From positions 40,672,001-40,736,000 of the forward strand of contig CM059443.1 of NCBI GenBank assembly GCA_030390025.1: DNA of 64,000 bases, in the 5' to 3' direction. The position numbers and the translations under genes were made by a program. Position 1 is the first letter of the stretch, and the number at the start of each line of letters is the position of its first letter. The stretch comes from Squalus acanthias. Lineage: Eukaryota. Below the pieces are notes generated by a model, which was given only the letters and a program-made list of their open reading frames with translations, did not search any database and was not told where the DNA came from. Of this stretch, positions 9,701 to 61,082 are shown piece by piece.

Positions 9701-9822
9701 GCAAGGGAATACACAATGAATGGTAGGACCCTAGGAAGGACAGAGGATTAGAGGGACCTTGGTGTGCATGTACATAGATCCCTGAAGGCAGCAGGACAGG
9801 TAGATAAGGTGGTTAAAAAGGC

Positions 9823-10419
9823 CCTGAGCTCCCAGTGGCCTGTCACTTTAATTCACTGCTCCACTCCCACTCAGACCTCACCGTCCTCGGCCTCTTGCAT
9901 TGTTCCACGGAAGCTCAGCGTAAGCTCGAGGAACAGCACCTCATCTTTCGATTTAGGCATTCTACAGCCCTCTGGACTCAACATAGAGTTCAACAATTTC
10001 AGATCATAACCTCGGCCCCTATCATATATATATTTATTTTTCCACACTTTTGTTTGTGTCTCATTCTGCCAGCGCAATTCACACCTCATCTAGAGCCATC
10101 CTTTGTACCTCAACCTGTCCCATTTCCACCTCCTCTTGCCTTGAATATCTCCTTAATGTCTCTCTATGTCTCTTAATCTCTCCTGCTTTCTATCCTATCA
10201 CTGACCTTCCCTTTTGTTCTTTCTTCCCCCCCGCACTTTTCCCAGCCTCTAAACTTGCTTTAAAATCTATTCCATTTCCTGCTTTTTTCCAGTTCTGACG
10301 AAAGGTCTTCGACCTGAAACGTTAACTCTTTCTCTCTCCACGGATGCTGCCTGGCCTGCTGAGTTTTTCCAGCGTTTTCTGTTATTTCGGATTTCCAGCA
10401 TCCGCAGTATTTTGCTATC
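9823..10419 (+). mobile_element. Penelope-like element 3' fragment (GIY-YIG C-terminus plus pLTR-type tail)
   Basis: PVACHFNS..HSHSDLTVLGL..RKLEEQHLIF/LQPSGLNIEF; 11-bp target-site duplication gttaaaaaggc at 9812-9822 and 10420-10430. Confidence 0.88.
10291..10327 (+). ncRNA. Minimal type I hammerhead ribozyme motif
   Basis: AGUU-CUGACGA-A-AGGUC(UUC)GACCU-GAAACGUU-AACU: both core boxes, helix I, helix II and a palindromic helix III. Confidence 0.82.
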
Positions 10420-10473
10420 GTTAAAAAGGCATATGGGATACTTGCCTTCATTAGCCGAGGCATAGAATATAAG

Positions 10474-10675
10474 CCATGATGTGGAGATGCCGGTGTTGGA
10501 CTGGGGTGGACAAATGTGAGAAGTCACACAACACCAGGTTATAGTCCAACAGTTTTATTTGAAATCACAAGCTTTCGGAGCGCTGCTCCTTCGTCAGGTG
10601 AAGGAGCAGCGCTCCGAAAGCTTGTGATTTCAAATAAAACTGTTGGACTATAACCTGGTGTTGTGCGACTTCTCA
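10474..10675 (-). mobile_element. Short non-coding hammerhead-bearing (Penelope-type) insertion with an internal inversion
   Basis: 13-bp target-site duplication catagaatataag (10461-10473, 10676-10688); palindrome at 10514-10678. Confidence 0.8.
10565..10601 (-). ncRNA. Minimal type I hammerhead ribozyme motif
   Basis: Minus strand reads UCAC-CUGACGA-A-GGAGC(AGC)GCUCC-GAAAGCUU-GUGA. Confidence 0.82.
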
Positions 10676-11284
10676 CATAGAATATAAGAGCAGGGAGGTT
10701 ATGATGGAGCTGTACAAATCGCTAGTTAGACCACAGCTGGAATACTGTGTGCAGTTCTGGTCGCCACACTATAGGAAGGATGTGATTGCATTGGAGAGGG
10801 TGCAGAGGAGATTCACCAGGATGTTACCTGGGCTGGAGCGCTTCAGCTATGAAGAGAGACTGGATAGGCTGAGGGGGGACCTGATTGAGGTGTACAAAAT
10901 TATGAGGGGCATAGATAGGGTAGATAGAAAGGAACTTTTCCCCTTAGTAGAGGGGTCAATAACCAGGGGGCATAGTTTCAAGGTAAGGGGCAGGAGGTTT
11001 AGAGGGGATTTGAGGAAAAACTTTTTCACCTAGAGGGTGGTTGGAATCTGGAACTCACTGCCTGAAAGGGTGGTAGAGGCAGGAACCCTCACAACATTCA
11101 AGAAGCATTTAGATGAGCACTTGAAACGCCATAGCATACAAGGTTACGGACCAAGTGCTGGAAAATGGGATTAGAATAGACAGGGCTTGATGGCCGGCGC
11201 GGACACGATGGGCCGAAGGGCCTCTTTCTGTGCTGTATAACGCTATGACTCTGACATTCCTATTAATTGCCTGATGCTGGAGAA

Positions 11285-12304: not shown

Positions 12305-12310
12305 TTTATT
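12305..12310 (-). terminator. Candidate MYO9B polyadenylation signal
   Basis: tttatt is AATAAA on the minus strand, followed by GT-rich sequence. Confidence 0.6.
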
Positions 12311-12775: not shown

Positions 12776-13272
12776 TTACAGGCTGGAGTCATCCGTTTCG
12801 TGAGGAAGTTCCAACAGCGGGTCGGAAAACCTCCGCTGGACCTTGGCCGGAGTGGGTTTGGCCTCGTCGGCCTGAGCAGTGGCCTGTGGCAGTTCGACCT
12901 CCCGCGCAGCGACGTACATTGAGCGGATGTTGTCAGATCGCCGCGAGGGCATCTCGCGCCGTCTCAGAGTGACTGCCAGCGGGTGCTGCTGCCCGTCCCC
13001 GGTGCCAGGGCTCACCGGGACGGCGCCCGTGGTGCTGACCATGCCAGGAGGCAGTTTGATGTTCCCCGTGGGCAGCGCGGCATTGCGCCGGGGCAGCCTG
13101 ATGCTCGCGAGCATGGAGAACGCGCGCCGCTGCATGATGGGAGGGCGAGCTGGCAGAGACTCGTGTTCAGTCGGGGGGGAGACGCGCTCTTTGACGGCGG
13201 GCGGAGGCTGGAGCGCAGACACGGACCGAAGCGAACGTCGGAGACTTCCTGTGAACTGGAACACTGCTGGAC
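12776..13272 (-). CDS. MYO9B: MYO9B last exon (proline-rich tail)
   Basis: ctctccag acceptor, phase 1; LPRRNAALPTGNIKLPPG, RRREMPSRRSDNIRSMYV and RRFSDP resemble the human MYO9B tail. Confidence 0.9.
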
Positions 13273-13538
13273 CTGGAGAGAGACAAAGAGAAAGCGTTTA
13301 CTCATTCACACCGTCTCCCCGGAGCTCGCCCGTTTCTCCGGGGCCCCCCCACAAACACCCGTTTCTCCGGAGCCCACCCCCCGCAGACGCCTGTCTCCCC
13401 ACTTCCTGTACGCAGACTCCCCGGCGCACTGCCCAATTACAATTGTACTCCGAGCCTGAGCTGACCCCACAGCCACTGCAGGTGAAAGAACCTCAGAAAT
13501 ACAGAAGTACACAAGATTGCAACCTACTTTTTACTGAC

Positions 13539-13666
13539 CTCCGGACTCTGGGTGCCCCGGTCGATCATCGAGGAGACTCTCCATACTGAGGGAGGCCTCC
13601 GAGTCCATGTTTTCCTCATCGGAGCCCCTCTGCTCTAACTCCGGGAGCTCGAGGGTCAGCTGATCT
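13539..13666 (-). CDS. MYO9B: MYO9B exon
   Basis: cccgcag| and G|gtcagt; DQLTLELPELEQRGSDEENMDSEASLSMESLLDDR. Confidence 0.9.
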
Positions 13667-13807
13667 CTGCGGGATGGAGCAGAGAAACAGAGAGAGTTTT
13701 ACTGGACCGCAAGAGCCCAGTGCCCAGCCTGTGCGGAATGAGAGCAGATCCCGGGCTCTCAGTACGAGGACACTGGGATTAGCCTTGGGTAGTGAGGGAG
13801 GACCTCG

Positions 13808-14340
13808 GTGTCCGTGGAACCTGTACCCCAGTGAGAGTCAGTGTCTGTGGAACCCATACCCCAGTGAGAGTCAGTGCCTGTGGAACCCGTACCCCAGTGA
13901 GAGTCAGTGCGTGTGGAACCCGTACCCCAGTGAGAGTCAGTGTCTGTGGAACCCGTACCCCAGTGAGAGTCAGTGTCTGTGGAACCCGTACCCCAGTGAG
14001 AGTCAGTGTCTGTGGAACCCGTACCCCAGTGAGAGTCAGTGTCTGTGGAACCCGTACCCCAGTGAGAGTCAGTGTCTGTGGAACCCACACCCCAGTGAGA
14101 GTCAGTGCCTGTGGAACCCGTACCCCAGTGAGAGTCAGTGTGTGGGGAACCTGTACCCCAGTGAGAGTCAGTGTGTGTGGAACCTGTACCCCAGTGAGAG
14201 TCAGTGTCTGTGGAACCCGTACCCCAGTGAGAGTCAGTGTGTGGGGAACCTGTACCCCAGTGAGAGTCAGTGTCTGTGGAACCCGTACCCCAGTGAGAGT
14301 CAGTGTCTGTGGAACCCGTACCCCAGTGAGAGTCAGTGCC
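13808..14340. repeat. 33-bp minisatellite, about 16 copies
   Basis: gtggaacccgtaccccagtgagagtcagtgtct. Confidence 0.95.
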
Positions 14341-14368
14341 CCTCAGTATGGTGCTCCCCTCGACTGAC

Positions 14369-14511
14369 CTCTCCTGCTTTATCGACTGGATTCGCTCGAT
14401 CAGAATTTCCTCTTCGTGTTCCATGTCCGTGTCGGAAGGCTCTTCCTCATCCAGACTTACCAACTTTGGGGTATTCTCCGCATCAGGTTTTGGGGTCCGA
14501 GGTCCTTTGCT
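14369..14511 (-). CDS. MYO9B: MYO9B exon (coiled coil)
   Basis: cttttag| and AG|gtcagt; SKGPRT...EEEILIERIQSIKQE. Confidence 0.88.
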
Positions 14512-15417
14512 CTAAAAGGGGGGCGGGGGAAGAAGATGGTGATTGTTACTGAGCTCCTTGTGGTGCCAGGCTCTATCCGGGGCCTGTGCTGAGCTACCAG
14601 ACCACAGCCAGGGTGGCGATGGGTCCCGGGGGCCCCAGGATTGTTGTGGACAAGGGCTAGAAATCAGTCAGGGACCCTGCTCCTGACCCAGAGACTCCTG
14701 TGTGCATGCGGACAGGGTTGGGGCTTGCTGTGAAGCCCCCCCCGGTACAATATCCTGCCGATACTCACCCTCCAAGCTCACACGGGCTCGGGGGGGGGGG
14801 GTGTCGTCTGTTGAACTAGCCCAGGAAGAGGCTTCATGAGTGGATTTGGGGGGGGGTGTGGGTAATGTAAATGATCCCACCCACAGACAGTTCCTTGGTG
14901 TTTCTCCCCAGGGTGGTGTCCAGTTCCTGGCTGGGTGGGAGTCGGAGTGAGGGGATGCGGGGGGTTGATGGGAGTGAGGGATGGGGGTGGGGGGTGACGA
15001 GAGGGGGGTGGGGGTGACGGGGGTTGGGGGCGAGGGGAATCTCCAGTCAGACGTTGGCCACGCTGCTTCCTCTCCGAGATTTGCCCCACACTTTTAGTGA
15101 ATCAATCTCTCCCCCCCCCCCACCAAATGTTTGTGGCTGAGATCAGGGAACATTGGGGGCAATTAATAACGAACCCTGACCCCGCTTGCAGTCACGCCCA
15201 AGGGGCAGAACGTTGCCTTGGCAGCACCAGGACGATGGGAACAGCGAGGGGGGGCTTGGAGTGTCGAACCAAATCGGGGAGTGTACGGGTCAGTGAGCAG
15301 TGCGAGGTTCAGGGGGCAGGGTTCAGGTCAGTTCCTCGTGGATTGGCATGCGACACACACAACAACAACAACAACAACAACAACAACACATGCGATGCAA
15401 GAGGCGCCTGCTAGTGA

Positions 15418-15555
15418 TGGAGGTCAGTGCGGGGTGGGGTTGGAGGTCAGTGCGGGAAGGGTTGGAGGTCAGCGCGGGAAGGGTTGGAGGTCAGCGCGGG
15501 AAGGGTTGGAGGTCAGCGCGGGAAGGGGTTGGAGGTCAGTGCGGGGTGGGGTTGG
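15418..15555. repeat. 22-bp minisatellite, preceded by (aac)n at 15360-15388
   Basis: ggaggtcagcgcgggaagggtt. Confidence 0.85.
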
Positions 15556-15628
15556 GTGACATGCGAGAACCATGGAATGAAGACAGAGCATGCGGAGAAA
15601 GGGTCAACCGAACTAGCCCAGTACCTAC

Positions 15629-15676
15629 CAGCACCCCATCGCATGGAGTAGAGAACCCAACTTCAAGAGGCCAAAG
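15629..15676 (-). CDS. MYO9B: MYO9B 48-nt exon
   Basis: ctctccag| and CTG|gtaggt; LWPLEVGFSTPCDGVL versus mammalian PWPLKLGFSSPYEGVL. Confidence 0.85.
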
Positions 15677-16133
15677 CTGGAGAGCGAGAGCGAGGGAGAG
15701 AGAGAAAAGGCACCAAACTCAGTCCCAATCATCACCGTCACAACCAGGTACGAAAACGTCAACAGAGCAAATTCTTCAACCACTCCCACAACAAAGGACC
15801 AGCCTCTCGCTTCCAGTCACTGCCCACTCCCCGCCCCTCCCACTCCCCGCTCCCAGTCCGGTGACCCAGATGCCCCAGACCCACCAGGGCATCCGTCACT
15901 CTCGGCCTCTGTTCGATTGGAATTTCTGATCAGGACAGAGGCTGGAACACCAAATCCCGACTAAAAAAACCGGGATGGACAACCGATCAAAACTGAAGTT
16001 ACGAAGAGACGAATCCCCAAAGAGACACTCCTCCGGTTCAAAAACAAAGAGTGGGATACAGGCTCGAAGGGCTGAATGGCCTCCTGCTGTTCCTATGTTC
16101 CGAAGCACGGTTACCATAGTTTTACCGACTTAC

Positions 16134-16248
16134 GCGCAGGAGCGAGAGACGTCGGACCGCCAGCTGTTCAGCCGTCTCCAGGTGGGTGATTTCGGCCATT
16201 TTCATTTTGTATTTCCGAATCTGTTCGGTGATCAGGAGCTCGACACAC
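16134..16248 (-). CDS. MYO9B: MYO9B exon (end of RhoGAP and coiled coil)
   Basis: ttggcag| and CGC|gtaagt; [38 protein letters not shown]. Confidence 0.88.
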
Positions 16249-16307
16249 CTGCCAACAAAACACAGAAACTCCCGTCAACCGGAGCAAACCCCATCAGTGC
16301 CGATCAG

Positions 16308-17040
16308 AAAGAAAGACTTGCATTTCTATAGCGCCTTTCTCCAACTCAGGACGTCCCAAAGCGCTTTACAGCCAATTAAGTACTTTTTTGAAGTGTAGTC
16401 ATTGTTGTAATGTAGGAAACACGGCAGCCAATATGCACAGAGCAAGATCCCACAAACAGCAATATGATAATGACCAGATAATTTGTTTTAGTGATGTTGG
16501 TTGAGGGATAAATATTGGCCCAGGACACCGGAGAGAACTCCCCTGCTCTTCTTTGACATAGCACCATGGGATCTATTACGTCCACCTGAGAGAGCAGACA
16601 GGGCCTCAGATTAACGTCTCATCCAAAAGACGGCACCTCCGACAGTGCAGCACTCCCTCAGTACTGCCCCTCTGACAGTGCGGCGCTCCCTCAGTACTGC
16701 CCCTCCGACAGTGCAGCGCTCCCTCAGTACTGCCCCTCCGACAGTGCAGCACTCCCTCAGTACTGCCCCTCCGACAGTGCAGCACTCCCTCAGTACTGCC
16801 CCTCTGACAGTGCGGCGCTCCCTCAGTACTGCCCCTCCGACAGTGCAGCGCTCCCTCAGTACTGCCCCTCCGACAGTGCAGCACTCCCTCAGTACTGCCC
16901 CTCCGACAGTGCGGCGCTCCCTCAGTACTGCACTGGAGTGTCAGCCTAGATTTTTGTGCTCAAGTCTCTGGAGTGGGACTTGAACCCACAACCTTCTGAC
17001 TCAGAGGCGAGAGTGCTGCCCACTGAGCCACAGCCGACAC
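16308..17040 (-). mobile_element. Deu-domain-like tRNA-derived SINE with an internal 33-bp tandem expansion (16639-16930)
   Basis: Colinear with 36353-36813 apart from about 9 copies of ccgacagtgcagcactccctcagtactgcccct; tRNA-like head near 16975-17035. Confidence 0.82.
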
Positions 17041-17395
17041 TGATGGTCCTCCATTTGGCCCCTCGAGCCTGCTCCGCCATTCAATAAAATCATGGCTGAT
17101 CTGATCTTGGCCTCAGCTCCACTTTCCTGCCCACTCCCCTTACCCTCGACTCCCCTATAGTTCAAAAATCTAGCTCCACCTTAAATATATTCAATGACCC
17201 AGCCTCCACAGCTCTCAGTCCTGTTACACACACACACAGTCAGTGCTGGAACACTCAGTCCTGTTACACACACAGTCAGTGCTGGGACACTCAGTCCTGT
17301 TACACACACAGTCAGTGCTGGGACACTCAGTCCTGTTACACACACACACACTCAGTATTAGTTTCACGGTGGAATAGGAGAAGCTGAAGACTCAC

Positions 17396-17527
17396 ATGGT
17401 TGTCTTAGAGACGTCTTTCATGCTCATCAGCGGGTCGGAGCTGTCTGGTGAACGGAGAACACATGGTGCAAAGACGATCGCCAGAGCGTTGGGAGACATG
17501 CGATTCATCTCTTCCAATACAGCCACT
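17396..17527 (-). CDS. MYO9B: MYO9B RhoGAP exon
   Basis: gtttcag| and AT|gtgagt; [43 protein letters not shown]. Confidence 0.93.
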
Positions 17528-17637
17528 CTGAAACCAAGAGCACCATCATCACAAGGGAACTCACTCCAACCTCGCACCACCAGTCAGGAACAGAGAGTTC
17601 AGGGCCATATTCTGACCTCTGGGAAGTGACAGGAAGT

Positions 17638-18014
17638 AGCTGGGAGTGGTCGGGTGAAGGTTTGGTCCGCTGGGACTGGTCGGGTGAAGGTTTGGTCCGC
17701 TGGGACTGGTCGGGTGACGGTTTGGTCCGCTGGGACTGGTCGGGTGAAGGTTTGGTCCGCTGGGACTGGTTGGGTGAAGGTTTGGTCCGCTGGGACTGGC
17801 TGGGTGAAGGTTTGGTCCGCTGGGACTGGCCGGGTGAAGGTTTGGTCCGCTGGGACTGGCCGGGTGAAGGTTTGGTCCGCTGGGACTGGCCGGGTGAAGG
17901 TTTGGTCCGCTGGGACTGGTCGGGTGAAGGTTTGGTCCGCTGGGACTGGTCGGGTGAAGGTTTGGTCCGCTGGGTCCGGTCGGGTGAAGGTTTGGTCCGC
18001 TGGGACTGGTCGGG
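17638..18014. repeat. 30-bp minisatellite, about 12 copies
   Basis: gctgggactggtcgggtgaaggtttggtcc. Confidence 0.95.
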
Positions 18015-18019
18015 ATTCT

Positions 18020-18960
18020 GCATTTATTCACAACGCCTTTAACATAGAAAACTCCCACAAGGCACTTCACAGGAGTGCAGACAAAAATGGATGCCAAGAC
18101 AAAGGAGGAGATATTAGGACAGGTGACCAAAAGCTTGGTCAAATGGTGATTTTAAGGAGTGTCAAAGAAGGCGAGAGAGGAGGAGAGGCTTAGGGAGGGA
18201 ATTCCAGAGCTTAGGGCCTTGGCAGCTGAAGGCACGGCCACCAAGGAAGAGAAGGATGCCCAACAGGCCAGAGGCAGTGGAATGCAGAATTCAGGGTGGT
18301 GATGGCGAGTGGGACTTGGTGCGAGTTAGGAGCAGCATTTTGGATGAGCTGAAGTTTAGAGGGTGCAAGGTGGGAGGCCGGCCAGGAGTGTGTTGGAATA
18401 GTCAAGTCTGGAGGTAACAAAGGCATGGATGAGGGTTTCAGCAGCGGATGAGTTGAGGCAGGGGCGGAGACGGGCGATGTTATGGAGGTCGAAGTAGGCG
18501 GTCTTGGTGATGGAGAGGATGTCGGGTTGGAAGCTCAGCTCTGGGTCGAATAGGACATCGAGATTGCGATCAGTCTGGTTCAACCTGAGACAGTGGCCAG
18601 GGAGGAAGATGGACTCCATGCCGAGGGTATGGAGTTTGTGGTGGGGACCAAAGACAATGGTTTCAGTCTTACCAATGTTTAGCTCGAACAAGTAGGCTGA
18701 CAACACAGAGGCAGTAGAGAGGTCAAGCGAGGTGGTGGAGAGGCGTACCTGGGTATCGTGAGCGTACATGTGGAACCTGACCCCATGGCTGTGGATGTCA
18801 TCGCCAAGAGCCAACATGGAGAGGAGGAAGATACGGGGGCCAAGGATAGATCCTTGGGGACTCGAGGTAATGGTGCAGGGTGGAAAGCGAAGCCTTTGCT
18901 GGAGATGCTCTGGCTACGATTGGATAGGCTAAAAGTGGAACCAAGCGAGGACAGTCCCAC
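18020..18960 (-). mobile_element. L2-clade LINE RT fragment
   Basis: FHMYAHDTQ and ETLIHAFVTSRLDYSN motifs. Confidence 0.85.
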
Positions 18961-19889
18961 TGTACAATGGGAGTGATTTGGAAGGAGTTTGGTCCTTTGG
19001 GATTCTACACAATGGGAATGATTGGGTAACGGTTCAGTCCATTGGAATTCTGACAATGTGAGTGAACGGAAAGCATAAAATACAATTTTAAGAAACGTGG
19101 TTTATGAGGATTCGGAGAGTTTTACCAGCTCTTTAAATAGTGTTCTACACTGCACTCTATACAAAAAAAAACTGCAAAGCTCTAATCCCACAATATATAC
19201 AGTAGAACAGAAAGGGCTTGGAGTTTGGTCCATTGGGATTCTGTACCATGGGAATGAATGGGATGCGATTTCGTCTGTTGGAATTCTGACTGTAGAAATG
19301 AATGGGAGATAGTTGCATTTGATCCATTGGGATTCTATCCATTGGGAATGAATGGGAAGGGTTTGGGTTTGCTTGGGGCTGGGTACACTGGCATTTCTAC
19401 AGCGCCTTTCACAACCTCAATGTTCCAAAGTGACTTGGAGCCAATGAAGTTGGTTTGAACTGTAGTCACTGTTGTAATGCAGGGAAACTGCTCGTTATTT
19501 GATTTTTTTCAGACGAGCTGATTGCTTAAAGCTGCACAGAACTCAATGAATCAAAATACATTTCCATTTTTATGAAACTATCAATAGTTTATGGAGTGTT
19601 TGGAACAAATTAACTCACTGCCAAACCAGATGGCAGACTGCCAAACTCACTGGGGATTCCAGAACTGGACAAACAATCAGCCTGGCACGGCTGGTCGAGT
19701 GTCGCAGGGGCCGAGTCTTCACAGACTGAGTCAGGGGGCAATCAGATCCCAATGTGGGGGAACAGCCGACGACGCCCGTCCCTCTCTGGGGGCGAGGGGG
19801 CTCCAACTTGGCCAGCACTTGACAATTTGGAGGATATGAGACTGATTATATGGGAAATCTTGGGTATAACCCCCGCCTCTCTTTCCACC

Positions 19890-20492
19890 ACTCCCACCGA
19901 GAGTGTGACCCCCCGAACCGCCCCCTGCCCAGAGCGTGACCCCCTCCCCTCCCCCTCCCCCCAGAGCATGACCCCCCTGCCCCATCCCCTGCCCAGAGCA
20001 TGACCCCCCGCCCCTCCCCCCACGAGAGCGTGACCCCCCGCCCCCAGAGCGTGGCCCCCGTGCCTCCCCCGCCCAGAGCGTGACCCCTGCTCCTCCCCCC
20101 CCAGAGAGCGTGACCCCTGCTCCTCCCCCCCCAGAGCAGTGACCCCCGAACCTCCCCCCGCCCAGAGCATGACCCCCGCCCCACCGAGAGCGTGACCCCT
20201 GCCCCTCCCCCGCCCAGACCATGACCCCCGCCCCTCCCCCCACTGAGAGCGTGACCCCTGCCCCTCCCCCCCACCCAGAGCGTCTCCCCTGCCCAGTGCG
20301 TGACCCCCGCCCCTTCCCCCACCCAGAGCGTGACCCCGCCCCTCCCCCCACGAGCGTGACCCCGCCCCTCCCCCGAGAGTGTGACCCCTGCCCCTCCCCC
20401 ACCGAGCGTGCCCCCTGCCCCCCCACCGAGAGCGTGACCCCTCCCCCGCCCCCCCCCACGCAGAGAGTGACTCCCCCGCCCCCTCCCCCCCT
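19890..20492. repeat. C-rich degenerate minisatellite (G-rich on the MYO9B sense strand)
   Basis: Recurring agagcgtgacccc core separated by C-runs. Confidence 0.9.
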
Positions 20493-20611
20493 GGAGGAGG
20501 CAGAGGCTCCTGGTCCGAGAGTTTAGGGTTCGAATATTGACTTTCACCAGAAGCAGCCCGTTCTAAACACCCCGTCGCTATGGTTACCCCACTTTCCAGC
20601 GCCCCTCTTAC

Positions 20612-20717
20612 TTGACCAGATGGAAGATGAGGCGTTCGAGCGTGCAGTAGCTGTGGCTAGGCAGCTGGTCCAAGACATTGTAAACCGCCTGTAACTGCTC
20701 CTGTCTCCCTGGGTGTT
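20612..20717 (-). CDS. MYO9B: MYO9B RhoGAP exon
   Basis: ccttcag| and AA|gtaaga; [36 protein letters not shown]. Confidence 0.92.
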
Positions 20718-20754
20718 CTGAAGGAGAAAGGGAAAGCGAATTAAACAACACAGG

Positions 20755-21600
20755 AGTGTGAAGTGATGCATTTTGGTAGGAAGAATGAGGAGAGGCAATA
20801 TAAACTAAATGGTATAATTTAAAGGGGAGGGGGTGGGCAGGAACGGAGAGACCTGGGGGTGTATGTACACAAGTCTTTGAAGGTGACAGGACAAGTTGAG
20901 AAGGCTGTTAAAGTAAGGCTTTATTAATAGATGTGAGAAGTTGCACAACACCAGGTTATAGTCCAACAGTTTTATTTGAAATCACAATCTTTCGGAGCGC
21001 TGCTCCTTCGTCAGGTGATTAATAGAGGCATAGAGTACAGAAGCAAGGAAGTTATGCTAAACCTTTATAAATCACTGGTTAGGCCCCAGCTGGAATAGTG
21101 TCCCCAATTCTGGGCACCACACTTCAGGAAGGATGTCGAAGCCTTGGAGAGGGTGCAGAGAGATTTACTAGAATGGTCCCAGGGATGAGGGATTACAGTT
21201 ACGAGAAGACATTGGAGAAGCTGGGGATTGTTATCCTTAGAGCAGAGAAGGTTAAGAGTAGACTTGATTGGTGTTCAAAATTATGAAGGGTTTTGATAGA
21301 GTAAATAAGGAGAAACTGTTTCCAGTGGCAGGAGGGTCGGTAACCAGAGGACACAGATTTAAGGTGATTTGCAAAAGAACCAGAGGGGAGATGAAGAGAA
21401 TTTTTTTAACGCAGCGGTGGAAGCAGATTCAATAATAACTTTCAAAAGGGAATTGGAGAAATACTTGAAGGGGAAACATGTGTAGGACTATGGGGAAAGA
21501 GCAGGGGAGTGGGACTATTTGGAGAGCTCTTTCAAAGAGCCGGCACAGGCACGATGGGCCGAATGGCCTCCTTCTGTGCTGTAAGATTCTAGGATTCTTA
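20755..21600 (+). mobile_element. CR1 3' fragment carrying a nested insertion
   Basis: [10 protein letters not shown] coding motif and CR1 tail. Confidence 0.88.
20931..21018 (-). mobile_element. 88-bp hammerhead-bearing insertion; hammerhead motif at 20982-21018 has a helix III substitution
   Basis: Near identical to 10514-10601; target-site duplication attaataga (20923-20931, 21018-21026). Confidence 0.82.
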
Positions 21601-21649
21601 GCTCAGAACTGCAAAATACCCAACAGTAATACAAACCACTGTGACTCAC

Positions 21650-21778
21650 CAATAGCACGCAGGAAGTCGCTGTACAGGGCAAAGGTCATTAGCGGGATCG
21701 GAAGTTCACGGAGCCACTGTTTAAGCACCCCTGTGATAGCATGAATGTGGTACGTCTCCAAACCCACCGACATGGGGT
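21650..21778 (-). CDS. MYO9B: MYO9B RhoGAP exon
   Basis: gtttcag| and G|gtgagt; [43 protein letters not shown]. Confidence 0.94.
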
Positions 21779-21831
21779 CTGAAACACAGAGCAACACAAA
21801 CATTTCAATCAAACACACGATTGCAGTCTCC

Positions 21832-22140
21832 ACGGGTTAGATACAAAGTAAAGCTCCCTCTACACTGTCCCATCAAACACTCCCAGGGCAGGTACAGCAC
21901 GGGTTAGATACAGAGTGAAACTCCCTCTACACTGCCCCATCAAACACTCCCTGGGCAGGTACAGCATGGGTTAGATACAGAGTAAAGCTCCCTCTACACT
22001 GCCCCATCAAACACTCCCTGGGCAGGTACAGCATGGGTTAGATACAGAGTAAAGCTCCCTCTACACTGTCCCATCAAACACTCCCAGGGCAGGTACAGCA
22101 CGGGTTAGATACAGAGTAAAGCTCCCTCTACACTGTCCCT
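21832..22140 (-). repeat. 65-bp tandem repeat, about 4.7 copies
   Basis: Reverse complement of the unit at 3253-3440. Confidence 0.9.
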
Positions 22141-22268
22141 CAGGGTAATTCTGATATACACTGACGCTGGATGTATTTGGTTGGTTCTCAGTCATGGCTA
22201 ACGTTCCCTCACTGATGTTCACTCCACATCGCTCCGACACTGAAAGCAACATGAGCACCACGACCCAC

Positions 22269-22461
22269 CCTCTTCCAGCCGCTGCCGTAGCTCCTTCATC
22301 TTGTTGGCTGCACCAGACTTGCGGTAAATTCCCTCGGTGTACAGTCCGTGCATTTCCACATATTCCAGCAGCATCTCCATCACCATGGGCACCATCTGGT
22401 TCTCGTCAGTCAGTGAGCACAGCTCTACTCCGAAATGCCGGGACGCCAGGTCAGGGTCATT
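22269..22461 (-). CDS. MYO9B: MYO9B RhoGAP exon with the arginine finger
   Basis: ttgtcag| and G|gtgggt; [10 protein letters not shown]...[30 protein letters not shown]. Confidence 0.94.
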
Positions 22462-29227: not shown

Positions 29228-30886
29228 ATAGAAGATAGGAGCAGGAGTAGGCCATTCGGCCCCTCGAGCCTGCTCCGCCATTCAATGAGATCATGGCTGA
29301 TCATCCAAACTCAGTACCCTGTCCCTGCTTTCTCCCCATATCCCTTGGTCCTTTTAGCCTTAAGAAATATATCTAACTCCTTTTTGAATATATTTAATGA
29401 ATTGGCCTCAACTGCCCTCTGTGGTAGAGAATTCCACAGGTTCACCACTCTCTGGATGAAGAACTCAGACTCGCGCTCTCACTTGGATCATAGAATCAAA
29501 CAGCACAGAAGGAGGCCATTCGGCCCATCAAGCCTTTGAAAGAGCTCTCCAATTAGTCCCACTCCCCTGCTCTTTCCCCATAGCCCTGCAAAATTTCCCC
29601 TTCAAATATTTATCCAATTCCCTTTTGAAAGTTATTATTGAATCTGCTTTCAAGCAGCGCATTCCAGATCACAACAACTCGCTGCGTAAAAAAAATTCTC
29701 CTCATCTCCCCTCTGGTTCTCTTGCCGATTATCTTCAATCTGTGTCCTCTGGTTACCGACCCTCCTGCCACTGGAAACAGTTTCTCCTTATTTACTCGAT
29801 CAAAATCTGCTTTTCTTGACATATATTAATGACTTGGACTGTGGGAGTACAGGGCACAATTTCAAAATTTGCAGATGACACAAAACTTGGAAGTATAGTG
29901 AACAGTGAGGAGGATAGTGATAGACTTCAGGAAGACATAGACAGGCTGGTGAAATGGGCGGACACGTGGCAGATGAAATTTAACGCAGAAAAGTGCGAAT
30001 TGATACATTTTGGTAGAAAGAATGAGGAGAGGCAATATAAACTGAATGGTACAATCCTAAAGGGGGTGCATGAACAGAGAGATCTGGGGGTATATGTGCA
30101 CAAATCGTTGAAGGTGGCAGGACATGTTGAGAAAGCAGTTAAAAAGGCTTATGGGATCCTGGGCTTCATGAATAGAGGTATAGAGTACAAAAGCGTGGAA
30201 ATTATGATGAACCTGTATAAAACACTGGTTCGGCCTCAACTGGAGTATTGTGTCCAATTCTGGGCACCGCACTTTAGGAAGGATGTGAAGGCTTTGGAGA
30301 GGGTGCAGAGGAGATTTACGAGAATGATTCCAGGGATGAGGGACTTCAGTTACGTGGATAGACTGGAGAAGCTGGGGTTGTTCTCCTTGGAGCAGAGAAG
30401 ATTGAGAGGAGATTTAATAGAGGTGTTCAAAATCATGAGGGGTCCAGACAGAGTAGATAGAGAGAAACTGTTCCCATTGGCAGAAGGGTTGAGAACCAGA
30501 GGACACAGATTTAAGGTGATTGGCAAAAGAACCAAAGGCGACATGAGGAAAAACTTTTTTACGCAGCGAGTGGTTATGATCTGGGATGCACTGCCTGAAA
30601 GGGTGGTGGAGGCAGACTCAATCGTGGCTTTCAAAAGGGAAGTGGATAAGTACCTGAAGGAAAGAAATTTGCAGGGCTATGGGGAAAGGGCGGGGGAGTG
30701 GGACTAGCTGAAGTGCTCTTGCAGAGAGCCGGCACGGGCTCGACGGGCCGAATGGCCTCCTTCTGTGCTGTAACCAGTCTATGATTCTATGAAAACCCCT
30801 CATGATTTTGAACACCTCTATCAAATCTCCCCTTAACATTCTCTGCTCTAAGGAGAACAATCCCAGCTTCTCCAGTCTCTGCACTG
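29228..30886. mobile_element. Nested CR1 cluster: a + strand copy (about 29810-30790, open 292-aa RT fragment) inside a - strand copy
   Basis: ISKFADDTKLG motif; the minus copy breaks at about 29805 and resumes at about 30791. Confidence 0.88.
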
Positions 30887-30931
30887 AGCTGTTATTACAC
30901 ATTCCGAGTTTTGACTGTTTTCTGAAATAGT

Positions 30932-36813: not shown

Positions 36814-37880
36814 CTTGGAATCAGGGGCCTCCTCGTCTTTGTGAACTGACGAAAATGCCGGAGAGAGGAAAAATTAGTCCATCGAGCCTGTACCATGTGG
36901 TCCAGTACCACACAGGATGGTGCCACTACCCACTGAGTCACTGTGGGAGGAATGGGGCAAGGGGGAGGAATAGGGGCTGGAAGGGGTCTGAGGAACGCTA
37001 CTTCCTGCTTTCCTTGTGAATTTTATGAGCTTGTTTCTAAATTAATGTTCCTCTCATTCCTCAACAATGTCACGTTCTGACTGGAGGGAACAAAGCGGCT
37101 GCCGCCCGGGCCCAAACCATCCAGCAGTAATTTGTTGTTATTATATCGGACTGGGTTTCATTAGCTCCCAGTTGACAGCTATGAGGTAAGTTTTAAAGAA
37201 AGCAGAACGCCACCAAACAGAACCAGGCTCAGGCCATAAACTACCTGTAATGAGGAGGTCCAGCCTTGGCAAGCCTGCCTTGTAAATTAATACCTCAGCG
37301 AGGAGTCTGCCCTCAGGCTGCAGCATGCTGAGCAAGGGCCTGGTTTGGCAGTCTGCCTCCGCATCAGGAGACTGGGCTGTAAATTGTCAACGGGTTCCAG
37401 GGACAGGTCTCAACACGAGTAGATTGACTTGTTTACAATGATCTTCAGGCAACGATGGGGGAGGGGGGAGGGGGGGGTGCGGGGGGGGGGGTTAAGGGAC
37501 ACACAACACAAACTTCCCAAGGGCTCAGCTCTAACAGAGCTCAGTCACGAACTCTCGGCAGCAGGTCCGGGGCCTAGCAACAGGCCTGTGCTAGTTGTCG
37601 GGAGCCTGGGGTGGTTGGGGGAGAGTCGTCACCTGGGTCATAGTGCAGTGGGCCAGAATCATTTCAGTTACTTACTTAACACAACAATCTTTGGGAAAAA
37701 AGAAAGCATTTGTTTCCAACTTCAAACGGAGAGTAATCCACAGCCCGCTGACGCCCTCCAGTGTCTCCGCCGCATTTATTCACAGACATTTGTTCCTCAA
37801 TGTGAATTCTTGACATTAGACTTTTAAATATATACGGGGGTTAAGGGCATGTGTCAATTTCTTCCAATAGAAAGCCCTTT

Positions 37881-38010
37881 GTCCGTATTTACAATGGAAA
37901 CTTTCTATGTAAACTTGTCACGCTGTGATGACACCCTCCGGCCAGTGGAGTCGCTGCAGTGACACGTTTACATAGACAATTTCCATTCTAAATGTGGACA
38001 CAGGAATTTA
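37881..38010. mobile_element. Palindromic MITE-like element, second copy
   Basis: Inverted ends homologous to 1016-1147. Confidence 0.6.
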
Positions 38011-38999
38011 TGGTGTCAGAAGTTTCATAAGGACTTAAGCACCGATTTTAATTGGGTGTAGGAGTCGGTTGGCCGGGGGTGGGGTCAACACTTTCCACCA
38101 CCCCCTGCCCGACCCCCTGACCTCCGCAGTGAGAGGTCTGGACGATTTTAACTCCTGGGCCTCATGTGCTTGTTCCCGGTCAGTTGCCTGCTCGAAACCA
38201 GCGGGGAGCTGGAGCTGACGGAAGCTGAATTTCGGGTATGGGTTTGAGATTCTTGAAACTCATCCCATGCCCGCGTTCTGCGGTCCATTTGCTCGGGTCG
38301 AGGGCTGTAGGGTTCTACAGGCTGGACGTCCCAAAGCGCTTCACAGCCAATTCATTACTTTTTGAAGTGTGGTCACTGTTGTAATGTAGGAAACGCGGCA
38401 GCCAATCTGCGCACAGCAAGCTCCCACAAACAGCAATGAGATAAAGGACCAGATCATCTGCTTTTTAGTGGTGTTGGTTGAGGGATAAATATTGGACCCG
38501 AGACACCGGGGAGAACTCCCCCTGCTCTTCTTCCAATAGTGGCCGTGGGATCTTTTTCATCCACCTGAGAGGGCCTCGGTTTAACGTCTCATCTGAATGA
38601 CGGCACCTCCGACAGCGCCAGTGACAGATTCTAACTTTGCACCATCTTAACGATGGGTACAGAAGCCCAGTGGCTCTGGCACTGGATCAGCAGTGAGTTA
38701 CAACCCCACCAGGGCAAGTTGTGAAATTGAACTCAATAAATCTGGTAATTTGTGGGCTGGCAGCAGGAATAGGAGCACAAAAGCTTCCAGATTGCCATAA
38801 AAACCCAACCGGTTCACTCATGTCCTTGAGAGAAGCTGGGCTACTTCCCCTACTTGTGACTCCAGTCCCACACTACGTCTTTGATGCTTAACGCCCTCTG
38901 AAGTGGCCAGAAACTCACCCAGTTATAAACAAATCGCTACAAACTTCGATTGAAGAACATTGGCCGGACCCTATCAGTAATGAGCCAGGCACTGTCTCC

Positions 39000-41920: not shown

Positions 41921-42556
41921 CATTTCGAGGAACTCGAGGAAGAGCACCTCATCTTTCGATTAGGCACTTTACAGCCTTCTGGATTCAACATCGAGTTCAA
42001 CAATTTCAGGCCATAACCACTGCTCCCATTTTCTCGGACAGCAGCTGCTGGTAATGAACATAAGAAATAGGAGCAGGAGTCGGTCATTCGGCCCCTCGAG
42101 CCTGCTCCGCCATTCAATAAGATCATGGCTGATCTGATCTTGGCCTCAACTCCACTTCCCTGCCCGCTCCCCATAACCCTTGACTCCCTTACCATTCAAA
42201 AATCTGTCTAATGGTTCTGCTGTTGCCATTTATACCTCCTCTAGACCCAACTTTTGTTTCTTTACTTGTCCCATTACCATCTCCTTTTGCCTTGCACCAT
42301 CTCTTAATGTCTCTTAATCTCTCCTGCCTTCCACCCTATCACAGACCTTCTCTTTTGTTCTTTCCTCCCCTCCCCCCTTTCCCTGCACTTGCTTAAAACT
42401 TTTTACATCTCTAACTTTTTCCAGTTCTGATGAAAGGTCATCGACTTGAAACGTTAACTCTGTTTCTCTCTCCACAGATGCTGCCTGACCCGCTGAGTGT
42501 TTCCAGCATTGTCTCTTTTGATTTCAGATTTCCTGCACCCGGGGTATTTTGCTTTT
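41921..42556 (+). mobile_element. Second Penelope-like 3' fragment, with a CR1 tail inserted at 42057-42208
   Basis: LEEEHLIFRLGTLQPSGFNIEFNNF; flanks ataaacaaaag and ataaacagaag; inner duplication taatg. Confidence 0.85.
42423..42459 (+). ncRNA. Minimal type I hammerhead ribozyme motif
   Basis: AGUU-CUGAUGA-A-AGGUC(AUC)GACUU-GAAACGUU-AACU. Confidence 0.8.
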
Positions 42557-48857: not shown

Positions 48858-51800
48858 CAGCGCTGGCGGTCTGTGTGTGGGCCTGCGTACAGCGCTAACA
48901 GTCTGCATGTGGGCCTGCTTACAGCGCTGGCGGTCTGCGTGTGGGCCTGCGTACAGCGCTGGCGGTCTGTGTGTGGGCCTGCGTACAGCGCTGGCGGTCT
49001 GCGTGTGGGCCTGTGTACAGCGCTGGCGGTCTGTATGTAGGCCTGCGTACAGCGCTGGCGGTCTGCGTGTGGGCCTGTGTACAGCGCTGGCGGTCTGCGT
49101 GTGGGCCTGCGTACAGCGCTGGCGGTCTGCGTGTGGGCCTGCGTACAGCGCTGGCGGTCTGTGTGTGGGCCTGCGTACAGCGCTGGCGGTCTGCGTGTGA
49201 GCCTGCGTACAGTGCTAACAGTCTGCGTGTGGGCCTGCGTACAGTGCTAACAGTCTGCGTGTGGGCCTGCATACAGTGCTGGCGGTCTGCGTCTGGGCCT
49301 GCGTACAGTGCTGGCGGTCTGCGTGTGGGCCAGTGTACAGCGCTGGCGGTCTGCGTGTGGGCCTGTGTACAGCGCTGGCGGTCTGCGTGTCGGCCTGCGT
49401 ACAGAGCTAACAGTCTGCATGTGGTCCTGCATACAGCGCTGGTGGTTTGCATGTGGGCCTGCGTAAAGTGCTAACGGTCTGCGTGTGGGCCTGCATATAG
49501 TGCTGGTGGTGTGCATACAGCATTAACGGTCTGCGTGTGGGCCTGCGTACAGTGCTGGCGGTCTGCGTGTGGGCCTGCGTACAGCGCTGGCGGTCTGCAT
49601 GTGGGCCTGCGTACATTGCTGGCGGTCTGCGTGTGTGCCTGCGTATACTGCTGGTGGTGTGCGTACAGCGTTAACAGTCTGCATGTGGGCCTGCGTACAG
49701 CGCTGGCGGTCTGCATGTGGGCCTGCGTACAGTGCTGGCGGTCTGCGTGTGGGCCTGCATACAGTGCTGGTGGTCTGCGTGTGGGCCTGCGTACAGCGCT
49801 GGCGGTCTGCGTGTGGGCCTGCGTACAGTGCTGGCGGTCTGCATGTGGGCCTGTGTACAGCGCTGGCGGTCTGCGTGTGGGCCTGCGTACAGCGCTGGCG
49901 GTCTGCGTGTGGGCCTGCGTACAGTGCTGGCGGTCTGCATGTGGGCCTGTGTACAGCGCTGGCGGTCTGCGTGTGGGCCTGCGTACAGTGCTGGCGGTCT
50001 GCGTGTGGGCCTGTGTACAGTGCTGGCGGTCTGCGTGTGGGCCTGCGTACAGTGCTAACAGTCTGCGTGTGGGCCTGCGTACAGCGCTGGCAGTCTGCGT
50101 GTGGGTCTGCGTACAGTGCTGGCGGTCTGCGTGTGGGCCTGCGTACAGTGCTGGCGGTCTGCGTGTGGGCCTGCCCACAGCGCTGGCGGTCTGCGTGTAG
50201 GCCTGCGTACAGTGCTGGCGGTCGGCGTGTGGGCCTGTGTACAGCGCTGGCGGTCTGCGTGTGGGCCTGCGTACAGAGCTGGTGGTTTGCGTGTGGGCCT
50301 GTGTAAAGTGCTAATGGTCTGCGTGTGGGCCTGCGTACAGTGCTGGCGGGCTGCGTGTGGGCCTGCATACAGTGCTGGCGGTTTCCGTGTGGGCTTGCGT
50401 ACAGTCCTGGCGGTCTGCGTGTGGGCCTGCGTACAGCGCTAACAGTCTACGTGTGGGCCTGCGTACAGTGCTGGCGGTCTGCGTGTGGACCTGCGTACAG
50501 TGCTGGCGGTCTGCGTGTGGGTCTGCGTACAGTGCTGGCGGTCTGCGTGTGGGCCTGCGTACAGTGCTAACAGTCTGCGTGTGGGCCTGCATACAGCGCT
50601 AACCGTCTGCGTGTGGGCCTGCGTACAGTGCTGGTGGTCTGCGTGTGGGCCTGCGTACAGCGCTGGCGGTCTGCGTGTGGGCCTGCGTACAGTGCTGGCG
50701 GTCTGCGTGTGGGCCTGCGTACAGCGCTGGCGGTCTGCGTGTCGGCCTGCGTACATTGCTAGTGGTCTGCGTGTGGGCTTGCGTACAGCGCTGGTGGTCT
50801 GCGTGTGGGCCTGCGTACAGCGCTGGCCGTCTGCGTGTGGGCCTGCGTACAGTGCTGGCGGTCTGCGTGTGGGCCTGCGTACAGTGCTGGCGGTCTGGGT
50901 GTGGGCCTGCGTACAGTGCTAACAGTCTGCGTGTGGGCCTGCGTACCGTGCTGGCGGTCTGCGTGTGGGTCTGCGTACAGTGCTAACTGTCTGCGTGTGG
51001 GCCTGCATATAGTGCTGGTGGTGTGCGTACAGCATTAAGGGTCTGCGTGTGGGCCTGCGTATAGTGCTGGCGGTCTGCGTGTGGGCCTGCGTACAGCGCT
51101 GGCGGTCTGCATGTGGGCCTGCGTACATTGCTGGCGGTCTGCATGTGGGCCTGCCTATAGTGCTGGTGGTGTGCGTACAGCGTTAACGGTCTGCATGTGG
51201 GCCTGCGTACAGCGCTGGCGGTCTGCATGTGGGCCTGCGTACAGTGCTGGCGGTCTGCGTGTGGGCCTGCGTACAGCGCTAGCGGTCTGCATGTGGGCCT
51301 GTGTACAGCGCTGGCGGTCTGCGTGTGGGCCTGCGTACAGTGCTGGCGGTCTGCGTGTGGGCCTGCGTACAGTGCTGGCGGTCTGCGTGTGGGCCTGCGT
51401 ACAGTGCTAACAGTCTGCGTGTGGGCCTGCGTACAGCGCTGGCAGTCTGCGTGTGGGTCTGCGTACAGTGCTGGCGGTCTGCGAGTGGGCCTGCGTACAG
51501 TGCTGGCGGTCTGCGTGTGGGCCTGTGTACAGCGCTGGCGGTCTGCGTGTGGGCCTGCGTACAGTGCTGGCGGTCTGCGTGTGGGCCTGCGTACAGTGCT
51601 GGCGGTCTGCGTGTGGGCCTGCATACAGTGCTGGCGGTCTGCGTGTGGGCCTGCGTACAGTGCTAACAGTCTGCGTGTGGGCCTGCGTACAGTTCTGGCG
51701 GTCTGCGTGTGGGCCTGCGTACAGCGCTGGCGGTCTGCATGTGGGCCTGCGTACATTGCTGGTGGTCTGCATGTGGGCCTGCCTATAGTGCTGGTGGTGT

Positions 51801-54800
51801 GCGTACAGCGCTGGCGGTCTACATGTGGGCCTGCGTACAGTGCTGGCGGTCTGCGTGTGGGCCTGCATACAGTGCTGGCGGTCTGCGTGTGGGCCTGCGT
51901 ACAGCGCTGGCGGTCTGCGTGTGGGCCTGCGTACAGTGCTAGCGGTCTGCATGTGGGCCTATGTACAGCGCTGGCGGTCTGCGTGTGGGCCTGCGTACAG
52001 TGCTGGCGGTCTGCATGTGGGCCTGCGTACAGTGCTGGCGGTCTGCATGTGGGCCTGTGTACAGTGCTGGCGGTCTGCGTGTGGGCCTGCGTACAGTGCT
52101 GGCGGTCTGCGTGTGGGCCTGCGTACAGTGCTAACAGTCTGCATGTGGGCCTGCGTACAGCGCTGGCAGTCTGCGTGTGGGTCTGCGTACAGTGCTGGCG
52201 GTCTGCGAGTGGGCCTGCGTACAGTGCTGGCGGTCTGCGTGTGGGCCTGCGTACAGCGCTGGCGGTCTGCGTGTGGGCCTGCGTACAGTGCTGGCGGTCT
52301 GCGTGTGGGCCTGTGTACAGCGCTGGCGGTCTGCGTGTGGGCCTGCGTACAGAGCTGGTGGTTTGCGTGTGGGCCTGCGTAAAGTGCTAACGGTCTGCGT
52401 GTGCGCCTGCGTACAGTGCTGGCGGTCTGCGTGTGGGCCTGCATACAGTGCTGGCGGTTTGCGTGTGGGCCTGCGTACAGCGCTAACAGTCCGCGTGTGG
52501 GCCTGCGTACAGTGCTGGCAGTCTGCGTGTGAACCTGCGTACAGTGCTGGCGGTCTGCGTGTGGGCCTGTGTACAGTGCTGGCGGTCTGCGTGTGGGCCT
52601 GCGTACAGTGCTGGCGGTCTGTGTGTGGGCCTGCGTCCAGTTCTGGCGGTCTGCGTGTGGGCCTGCATACAGCGCTAACAGTCTGCGTGTGGGCCTGCGT
52701 ACAGTGCTGGCGGTCTGCATGTGGGCCAGTGTACAGCACTGGCAGTCTGCGTGTGGGCCTGCATACAGTGCTGGCGGTCTGCGTGTGGGCCTGCGTACAG
52801 CGCTGGCGGTCTGCGTGTGGGCCTGCGTACATTGCTGGCGGTCTGCGTGTGGGCCTGCGTACAGCGCTGGCGGTCTGCGTGTGGGCCTGCGTACAGCGCT
52901 GGCGGTCTGCGTGTGGGCCTGCGTACAGCGCTGGCGGTCTGCGTGTGGGCCTGCGTACAGTGCTGGCGGTCTGCGTGTGGGCCTGCGTACAGTGCTGGCG
53001 GTCTGCGTGTTGACCTGCGTACAGTGCTAACAGTCTGCGTGTGGGCCCGCGTACAGTGCTGGCGGTCTGCGTATGGGTCTGCGTACAGTGCTAGCAGTCT
53101 GCGTGTGGGCCTGCATACAGTGCTAACAGTCTGCATGTGGGCCTGCATACTGTGCTGGTGGTCTGCGTGTGGGCCTGCGTACAGTGCTAACAGTCTGCGT
53201 GTGGGCCTGCGTACAGTGCTGGCGGTCTGCGTGTGGGCCTGCGTACAGTGCTAACAGTCTGCGTGTGGGCCTGCGTACAGTGCTAACAGTCTGCGTGTGG
53301 GCCTGCGTACAGTGCTGGCGGTCTGCGTGTGGGCCTGCGTACAGTGCTAACAGTCTGCGTGTGGGCCTGCGTACAGTGCTAACAGTCTGCGTGTGGGCCT
53401 GCGTACAGCGCTGGTGGTCTGCGTGTGGGCCTGCGTACAGTGCTAACAGTCTGCGTGTGGGCCTGCGTACAGTGCTGGCGGTCTGCGTTTGGGTCTGCGT
53501 GCAGTGCTGGCAGTCTGCGTGTGGGCCTGCGTACAGTGCTAACAGTCTGCGTATGGGCCTGCATACAGTGCTGGCGGTCTGCGTGTGGGCCTGTGTACAG
53601 TGCTAACAGTCTGCGTGTGGGCCTGCGTACAGTGCTAACAATCTGCATGTGGGCCTGCGTACAGCGCTGGCGGTATGCATGTGGGCCTGCGTACAGTGCT
53701 GGCGGTCTGCGTGTGGGCCTGCGTACAGCTCTGGCGGTCTGCGTGTGGGCCTGCGTACAGCGCTGGCGGTCTGCGTGTGGGCCTGCGTACAGCGCTAACA
53801 GTCTGCGTGTGGGCCTGCGTACAGCGCTGGCGGTCTGCGTGTCGGCCTGCATACAGCGCTGGTGGTTTGCGTGTGGGCCTGCGTAAAGTGCTAACGGTCT
53901 GCGTGTGGGCCTGCGTATAGTGTTGGTGGTGTGCGTACAGCGTTAACGGTCTGCGTGTGGGCCTGCGTACAGCGTTAACGGTCTGCGTGTGGGCCTACTT
54001 ACAGTGCTGGCGGTCTGCGTGTGGGCCTGCGTACAGCGCTGGCGGTCTGCGTGTGGGCCTGCGTACAGTGCTGGCGGTCTGCGTGTGGGCCTGCATACAG
54101 TGCTGGCGATCTGCGTGTGGGCCTGCGTACAGTGCTGGCGGTCTGCGTGTGGGCCTGCGTACAGTGCTGGCGGTCTGCGTGTGGGCCTGCGTACAGTGCT
54201 GGCGGTCTGCGTGTGGGCCTGCGTACAGTGCTGGCGGTCTGCGTGTGGGCCTGCGTACAGTGCTAACAGTCTGCGTGTGGGCCTGCGTACAGCGCTGGCA
54301 GTCTGCGTGTGGGTCTGCGTACAGTGCTGGCGGTCTGCGAGTGGGCCTGCGGACAGTGCTGGCGGTCTGCGTGTGGGCCTGCGTACAGCGCGGGCGGTCT
54401 GCGTGTGGGCCTGCGTAGAGCGCTGGCGGTCTGCGTGTGGGCCTGTGTACAGCGCTGGCGGTCTGCGTTTGGGCCTGCGTACAGAGCTGGTGGTTTGCGT
54501 GTGGGCCTGTGTAAAGTGCTAACGGTCTGCGTGTGGGCCTGCGTACAGTGCTGGCGGTCTGCGTGTGGGCCTGCAAATAGTTCTGGCGGTTTGCGTGTGG
54601 GCCTGCGTACAGTCCTGGCGGTCTGCGTGTGGGCCTGCGTACAGTGCTGGCGGTCTGTGTGTGGGCCTGCGTACAGTGCTAACAGTCTGCGTGTGGGCCT
54701 GCATACAGCGCTAACAGTCTGCGTGTGGGCCTGCGTACAGTGCTGGCGGTCTGCGTGTGGGCCTGCGTACAGCGCTGGCGGTCTGCGTGTGGGCCTTCAT

Positions 54801-60800: not shown

Positions 60801-61082
60801 ACAGTGCTAACAGTCTGCGTGTGGGCCTGCGTACAGCGCTGGCGGTCTGCGTGTGGGCCTGCGTACAGCGCTGGCGGTCTGCGTGTGGGCCTGCGTACAG
60901 TGCTGGCGGTCTGCGTGTGGGCCTGCGTACAGTGCTGGCGGTCTGCGTGTGGGCCTGCGTACAGTGCTGGCGGTCTGCGTGTGGGCCTGCGTACAGTGCT
61001 GGCGGTCTGCGTGTGGGCCTGCGTACAGCGCTGGCGGTCTGCGTGTGGGCCTGCGTACAGTGCTGGCGGTCTGCGTGTGGGC
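48858..61082. repeat. 12.2-kb array of a 32-bp unit (about 380 copies)
   Basis: gcgtacagtgctggcggtctgcgtgtgggcct. Confidence 0.98.

Follow-up and report, generated by a model that had tools for sequence, protein, structure and literature searches.

A hammerhead-bearing palindrome in shark DNA as a probable head-to-head insertion of a Penelope-like end repeat

The hammerhead-bearing palindrome described here (copy A), found in a 64,000-nucleotide stretch of Squalus acanthias DNA (the window), is very probably a heavily 5'-truncated, dead-end insertion of a young, high-copy Penelope-like retroelement (PLE), with two copies of its end repeat likely made head to head during integration. We are slightly more confident still of the class, a PLE insertion with a twice-copied end repeat; within this class, two-strand priming is the favoured route and snap-back a lesser, still serious contender. 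PLE identity was assigned by the anatomy of the insertion and not by an open reading frame (ORF), no reverse transcriptase (RT) or endonuclease ORF of this family being found in the window. All testable sequence-level features fit, barring the variable 5' truncation, which gave a mixed result, and PLE membership is likely on this footing. Most likely, the mirror arm arose at integration and does not belong to a mini-element as a constant component.

Anatomy of the insert and its target site

The inverted-repeat arms (10514-10592 and 10600-10678) are 79 nt each and 99% complementary, with 7 nt (GTCAGGT) between them, and the single mismatch (10526 A versus 10666 G) is a CpG-type transition. These arms, together with the mismatch, the loop and the 13-bp target-site duplication (TSD), had been described in the original prediction and were re-found here, the duplication CATAGAATATAAG being an exact repeat with a chance of about 2e-8 at a given position. 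The element had also been given an extent of 10474-10688; the palindrome does lie within it, but the insert proper is 10474-10675 (202 bp), with the right arm's final 3 nt (CAT) common to arm and TSD. Read on the minus strand, the insert consists in order of an inverted partial core (family positions 88 to 10), a direct core (1-88) and a 40-nt tail, resulting in a unit of 88-nt core plus tail in which the tail sits on a single arm and 10474-10513 has no mirror partner. Going by the upstream consensus of run X10 (see below), the direct arm may reach 10603, and 10600-10603 fits both arms by 2 nt from the window alone and by 4 nt with that consensus. No ORF and no tandem repeat were found at 10474-10675, where there is one complete hammerhead core; the tail ends in ATCATGG, which may represent an ORF start. 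A DNA-transposon or MITE reading was set aside given the unequal arms, the tail at one end and a second copy (copy B) without inverted repeat.

Table 1. Features of the insert, its host and related insertions (window coordinates)
Feature	Position	Strand	Basis
Neighbouring PLE of another family: frameshifted endonuclease C-terminus and end repeat with the 10291-10327 hammerhead	9823..10419	+	TSD, peptide comparison
Host: decayed LINE 3' part, split by the insert	10420..11250	+	window paralogs at 65-71%
Left TSD copy, 13 bp	10461..10473	.	repeat match and empty-site joints
40-nt tail, one arm only	10474..10513	-	not found in copy B or the inverted arm
Direct arm: 88-nt core of the PLE end repeat (pLTR)	10514..10601	-	sequence comparison
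Minimal type I hammerhead motif	10565..10601	-	motif and fold analysis
Centre: CTTC / 7-nt loop / GAAG	10589..10603	.	microhomology joint
Inverted arm, without CUGA or tail, covering family positions 10-88; its last 3 nt also in TSD	10600..10678	+	
Right TSD copy	10676..10688	.	exact repeat
Copy B: 88-nt core, no tail, no inverted arm	20931..21018	-	3 differences in 88 from copy A

The host LINE is presumably of the CR1 type, and the ORF of one of its paralogs (29820-30707) gave a weak RVT_1 match (E 1.4e-4, below the cut-off). Removal of the insert and one TSD copy makes the LINE align gap-free there with the paralog near 30090-30280. Contigs were then compared in four runs (X1, X6, X10 and X21) from related genomes at a likeness of 85. 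Empty LINE paralogs, seen as the joint 10460>10676 with 13 letters fitting both sides, were present in 12 contigs of X6, 3 of X10 and 2 reads of X21, a set of raw reads from another organism (58 matching out of 10 million) that is informative for these two reads only; in X1 the joint was absent at the exact row and present in shifted versions. Empty sites in other LINE copies represent 6 of the 15 joints listed (857 in total).

None of the listed contigs or reads crosses copy A's own junctions, as would be the case for an assembly fold-back artefact; run X1 contains 0.87 of the 62 words sampled from 10300-10900. However, the two arms are not identical, with one base and the tail setting them apart, and beyond the insert the LINE picks up again behind an exact 13-bp duplication in agreement with the empty paralogs, making such an artefact the least probable of the explanations considered.

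The TSDs of copies A and B (13 bp and 9 bp) are 77% and 89% AT, against 48% in positions 1-47000. Three of the four hammerhead-bearing insertions of the window (9822, 10473 and 20931) lie in one short LINE segment (paralog positions 30148, 30191 and 30176, respectively), a clustering that suggests a target hot spot. A joint in X6 (10458>10519) represents a copy without tail, inserted at the LINE base that copy B also occupies. Elsewhere in the window, a 97-nt inverted repeat (30347-30443 and 30795-30891, 88%) is found where the 3' end of a LINE copy is directly followed by a short LINE piece in inverted orientation.

The neighbouring PLE is flanked by its own 11-bp TSD, GTTAAAAAGGC, at 9812-9822 and 10420-10430, and a second copy of its family was found near 41930-42555. 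Its peptide is 78% identical to a protein of the skate Leucoraja erinacea in a stretch just after a GIY-YIG match, which is weak (E 0.008, below the cut-off) and bears on the 10291 family rather than that of copy A; the skate gene model also has an RT piece, maybe LINE-derived. Neither of the neighbour's two peptides matched a Pfam family, and their best matches in the Atlas were below 0.9, the nearest named cluster having GIY-YIG in 15% of its members (a lead only). The distance from motif to end is similar in the two families (125 nt in the 10291 family, 124 in that of copy A). The helices of copy A had been said to differ from the 10291 motif with pairing kept; they do belong to a different family, but this reflects two families of one known motif and not covariation within a family. 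Directly before the 10291-family core, a pyrimidine run ending in CAG occurs at 10286-10294 and again at about 42418-42426, resembling the intron end described at helix I for the Penelope of D. virilis (Cervera and De la Pena 2014, PMC4209133). The core of the 42427 copy reads CUGAUGA and thus contains an ATG, the position at which the ORF of the anole element starts, while the 10295 copy has ACG.

The hammerhead and its predicted hairpin

The minus-strand hammerhead (10601-10565) is composed of helix I UCAC/GUGA, CUGACGA, an extra A, helix II GGAGC/GCUCC, GAAA and AAGCUU. By inspection, it has the features of minimal PLE hammerheads: the core boxes, the extra base before helix II, G10.1-C11.1 and a palindromic helix III. 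A strict motif scan of positions 1-47000 returned 4 hammerheads (10295, 42427, 21014 and 10597) and 0 in each of 200 shuffles, in agreement with the complete hammerhead of the original prediction. The scissile bond is predicted between 10569 and 10568, and an AATAAA follows the hammerhead at 10559-10554. An Rfam search of the whole window (E<=1) gave no hammerhead family, its 3 matches all being mir-3070 in a distant tandem repeat, and the folding energy of the isolated 47-nt motif was not beyond chance (13 of 200 shuffles were equally good).

That the inverted arm starts inside the core, lacking CUGA, was confirmed, its first base being family position 10. The computed energy of the hairpin is -145.9 kcal/mol, against -99.1 with helices I and II forced, leaving the hairpin 47 kcal/mol more stable. 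A transcript of copy A would form a hairpin of 76-79 bp, and the ribozyme is predicted to be silent, without cleavage, because the inverted arm would be transcribed first and the hairpin is far more stable than the forced hammerhead fold; the suggestion that this arm would sequester the ribozyme is thus upheld by computation. The self-duplex of AAGCUU in copy A has -4.3 kcal/mol and that of AAGAUU in copy B +0.8. Minimal hammerhead monomers showed no self-cleavage in vitro (PMC4209133), and cleavage by the hammerhead of PAc, a Poseidon PLE of Anolis carolinensis, needed protein (Frangieh et al. 2024, PMC11167929).

The window as a whole is vertebrate DNA rich in repeats. It contains the 3' exons of a myosin-IXb-like gene on the minus strand (12776-22460), with the RhoGAP domain and tail; the best PDB match is 5c5s (E 1.2e-19), further exons were read by short motifs, and a stop at 12776 is followed by an AATAAA at 12310, the likely poly(A) signal. 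Copy A lies about 1.6 kb past this signal and copy B in an intron, both in the gene's sense. Read-through transcripts would therefore include the hairpin, which could have been kept for a host role in small-RNA production or in termination behind the MYO9B-like gene. However, the insertion is young (3 differences in 88 from copy B), one arm carries a CpG-type change and there is no sign of selection, so that we regard a host role as highly improbable; the RNA runs contained only 0.05-0.16 of the sampled words and were not counted as evidence. Most likely, copy A is an inert remnant of a common retroelement, of the kind that insertions of this known class ordinarily leave behind. Two other repeats of the window are a 66-nt imperfect inverted repeat (37856-37921 and 37959-38024; 77%, 37-nt spacer) without hammerhead core, possibly an old hairpin element, and a 12-kb array (48858-61082) of about 381 copies of a 32-bp GC-rich unit beside N gaps.

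Other copies and the formation of the palindrome

Copy B consists of positions 1-88 alone within its own 9-bp TSD, ATTAATAGA (20923-20931 and 21018-21026, the end bases being common to TSD and element), indicating that the family has two natural ends, position 88 and position 128, and an optional mirror arm. It shares its end base with the inverted arm of copy A, likewise tail-less, and its helix III palindrome is broken (AAGAUU). In X10, 57 contigs run past 10603 into common upstream sequence (agreement 0.71), and the family is therefore longer than the 88-128-nt unit. In X6, 3 of the 12 matches listed have other sequence attached to the core close to the inner boundary found in copies A and B. 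Furthermore, 8 of the 15 joints listed (857 in all) run from the left side into the right arm through different breakpoints, the arms starting at (94,36), (51,34), (42,26), (38,34), (32,21), (28,23), (27,35) and (20,32), compared to (1,10) in copy A, which indicates that the palindrome centre differs between copies. These joints have a short side of 21-28 letters, come mostly from runs of other species and may in part be variants of each other, so they speak of variety and not of frequencies. A clustering of arm starts at positions 32-36 (5 of 8) was set aside since at least 2 of the 5 are variants of other joints. Several inverted arms begin at 10622-10626, close to where cleavage is predicted (10624 in the right arm), a weak pattern that variants explain in part.

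Contigs fitting two places of the stretch numbered 3606 in X1, 15220 in X6 and 1451 in X10. They are most simply explained by the two arms and would point to a large family, with the reservation that summed contig depths are not equal to copy number. Pattern scans of viral, metagenome and prokaryote contigs gave no match to the element. Short stretches of it were absent from the literature searched, although the family may well be catalogued already, and titles and abstract openings on Penelope, sharks and inverted repeats held nothing on the family of copies A and B.

The original prediction of a dedicated tiny element with a designed hairpin found no support in view of copy B without the arm, the upstream extension in X10 and the other palindrome centres. 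A broader form of this idea would leave the hairpin unfixed and assume a non-autonomous, retrozyme-like unit, 88-128 nt in length, whose 5' end is set at helix I and which a PLE would mobilise in trans. Copies A and B begin at nearly the same base, X6 contains a head-to-tail joint of the ~84-nt core (10600>10519, depth 253, in another genome), and retrozymes have been argued to derive from PLE end repeats (bioRxiv 10.64898/2026.07.22.740005). However, the 57 X10 contigs extend the family upstream, other junctions start at positions 20-94, neither window copy is in a tandem array, and the hammerhead is of the minimal PLE kind rather than canonical as in the retrozymes of PMC7229834. Therefore, we consider such a unit unlikely. 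The hammerheads at the X6 joint are close enough that a dimeric ribozyme could form, a retrozyme-like arrangement.

For the preferred reading, a PLE insertion with the end repeat copied twice at integration, we propose a course in three steps. The 13-bp TSD would reflect nicks made 13 nt apart on both strands of an AT-rich site by the element's GIY-YIG endonuclease. Each 3' overhang would then prime reverse transcription, one from the outer start site at the tail end (10474) and the other from the inner site at family position 88, where 3 nt (CAT) match the target. Finally, both cDNAs would halt in the hammerhead region and be joined through the complementary CTTC and GAAG, presumably by repair. 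At copy A itself, the ends are staggered by 13 nt, with a 3-nt target match at the inner end and a 2-4-nt match at the centre. Two start sites, an outer and an inner one, each serving one strand, would explain why the tail is found on one arm only. The anole PLE protein cuts and extends both strands in vitro, prefers AT-rich DNA, uses two internal start sites with the tail between them, and is a predicted dimer (PMC11167929). That two start sites serve two strands in one event is our own proposal, which was not found stated in the literature searched.

Alternatively, the same element could have acquired the mirror arm via self-priming, in which the 3' end GAAG folds on CTTC across the 7-nt loop and copies itself up to the inner boundary. 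A 4-bp stem with a 7-nt loop has snap-back geometry, junction palindromes have been read in this manner (PMC3846280), and the two arm ends are at most 17 nt apart in 8 of 9 cases. By contrast, this closeness is no greater than in shuffled pairs, and self-priming alone leaves unexplained why the copied arm stops at the tail-less family end, the same as in copy B. A permutation test of the arm ends favoured neither joining mechanism (p 0.44, 0.07 and 0.49). Taken together, we regard self-priming as possible and distinctly less probable than priming from both target strands.

The upstream extension in X10 and the varied arm ends speak for a variable 5' truncation, yet both window copies begin at nearly the same base. 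A 5' end at the helix I edge was observed in three junctions (copy A, copy B and the X6 tandem joint), which random truncation does not predict, although three samples are too few to call. A CCACTTC, which we take to be initiator-like, lies just before helix I in the X10 upstream consensus. A tentative and less likely reading is that the stubs are complete copies of the RNA 5' end rather than random truncations, with the transcript starting just before helix I and a dimeric RT-endonuclease priming both target strands at the two internal start sites to leave, in one reaction, the hairpin and the one-arm tail. If so, the palindromes would record directly in the genome how Penelope integration passes through its unresolved second-strand step, and would make up a short self-amplifying sub-family. 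In Drosophila virilis the PLE intron ends at helix I (PMC4209133); the X10 upstream consensus of the copy A/B family has no AG at the helix I edge.

A young family with many short inverted insertions and clean TSDs offers a genome-wide map of start sites, nick stagger and joining points, which could decide between two-strand priming and self-priming, a step left open in the literature consulted. It also carries a warning, as hairpins of this type could pass for MITEs, microRNA precursors or new ribozyme elements.

Comparison with known systems

Copy A resembles L1 twin-priming inversions as an inverted, truncated insert within a TSD, for which both target strands would have served as primers. 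However, the arms in L1 twin-priming reportedly cover different parts of the RNA, whereas both arms of copy A copy the same 79 nt.

The original prediction had named a Penelope-type or a retrozyme-like family; the first holds by anatomy, while retrozyme features are lacking at the locus. Like non-LTR retrozymes (Cervera and De la Pena 2020, PMC7229834; Li et al. 2026 preprint), copy A is short, non-coding and PLE-related and has a type I hammerhead. By contrast, these retrozymes form head-to-tail arrays giving circular RNA, whereas copy A is a single head-to-head insertion with one complete core. No head-to-tail array with at least 2 complete hammerheads was found at its locus, nor was a canonical type I hammerhead (6-bp helix I, loop 1-loop 2 contact), copy A having a helix I of 4 bp.

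The hammerhead is closest to those of metazoan PLEs (PMC4209133), with which it shares the 4-bp helix I, the unpaired base before helix II, G10.1-C11.1, a one-pair helix III with palindromic AGCU, and single or opposite-strand occurrence; paired minimal hammerheads have been reported on opposite strands 100-700 bp apart. Helix II is 5 bp in copy A, unlike the 7-8 bp of the Schistosoma families, and sharks are not named in the two supplementary files of that study that were searched. Copy A is also like PAc (PMC11167929) in its two end points bounding the tail, its AT-rich target and an outer end about 120 nt past the hammerhead core. The ORF of PAc starts inside the hammerhead, whereas in copy A none of the three frames through the motif stays open as far as the tail end, where a candidate ATG is located.

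Published PLE insertions include an inverted 5'-truncated copy, a 30-40 bp tail at one end, an 8-10 bp TSD and head-to-head junction palindromes (Arkhipova et al. 2013, PMC3846280; Craig et al. 2021, PMC8557442). Copy A differs from these units in its arms of less than 130 nt without ORF, in its 40-nt tail and in a TSD of 13 bp instead of 8-10 bp. Like the endonuclease-positive units among them, it has a head-to-head inverted end repeat with the inverted copy shorter, a tail on one arm, a short TSD, a junction palindrome and an insertion site within another retroelement.
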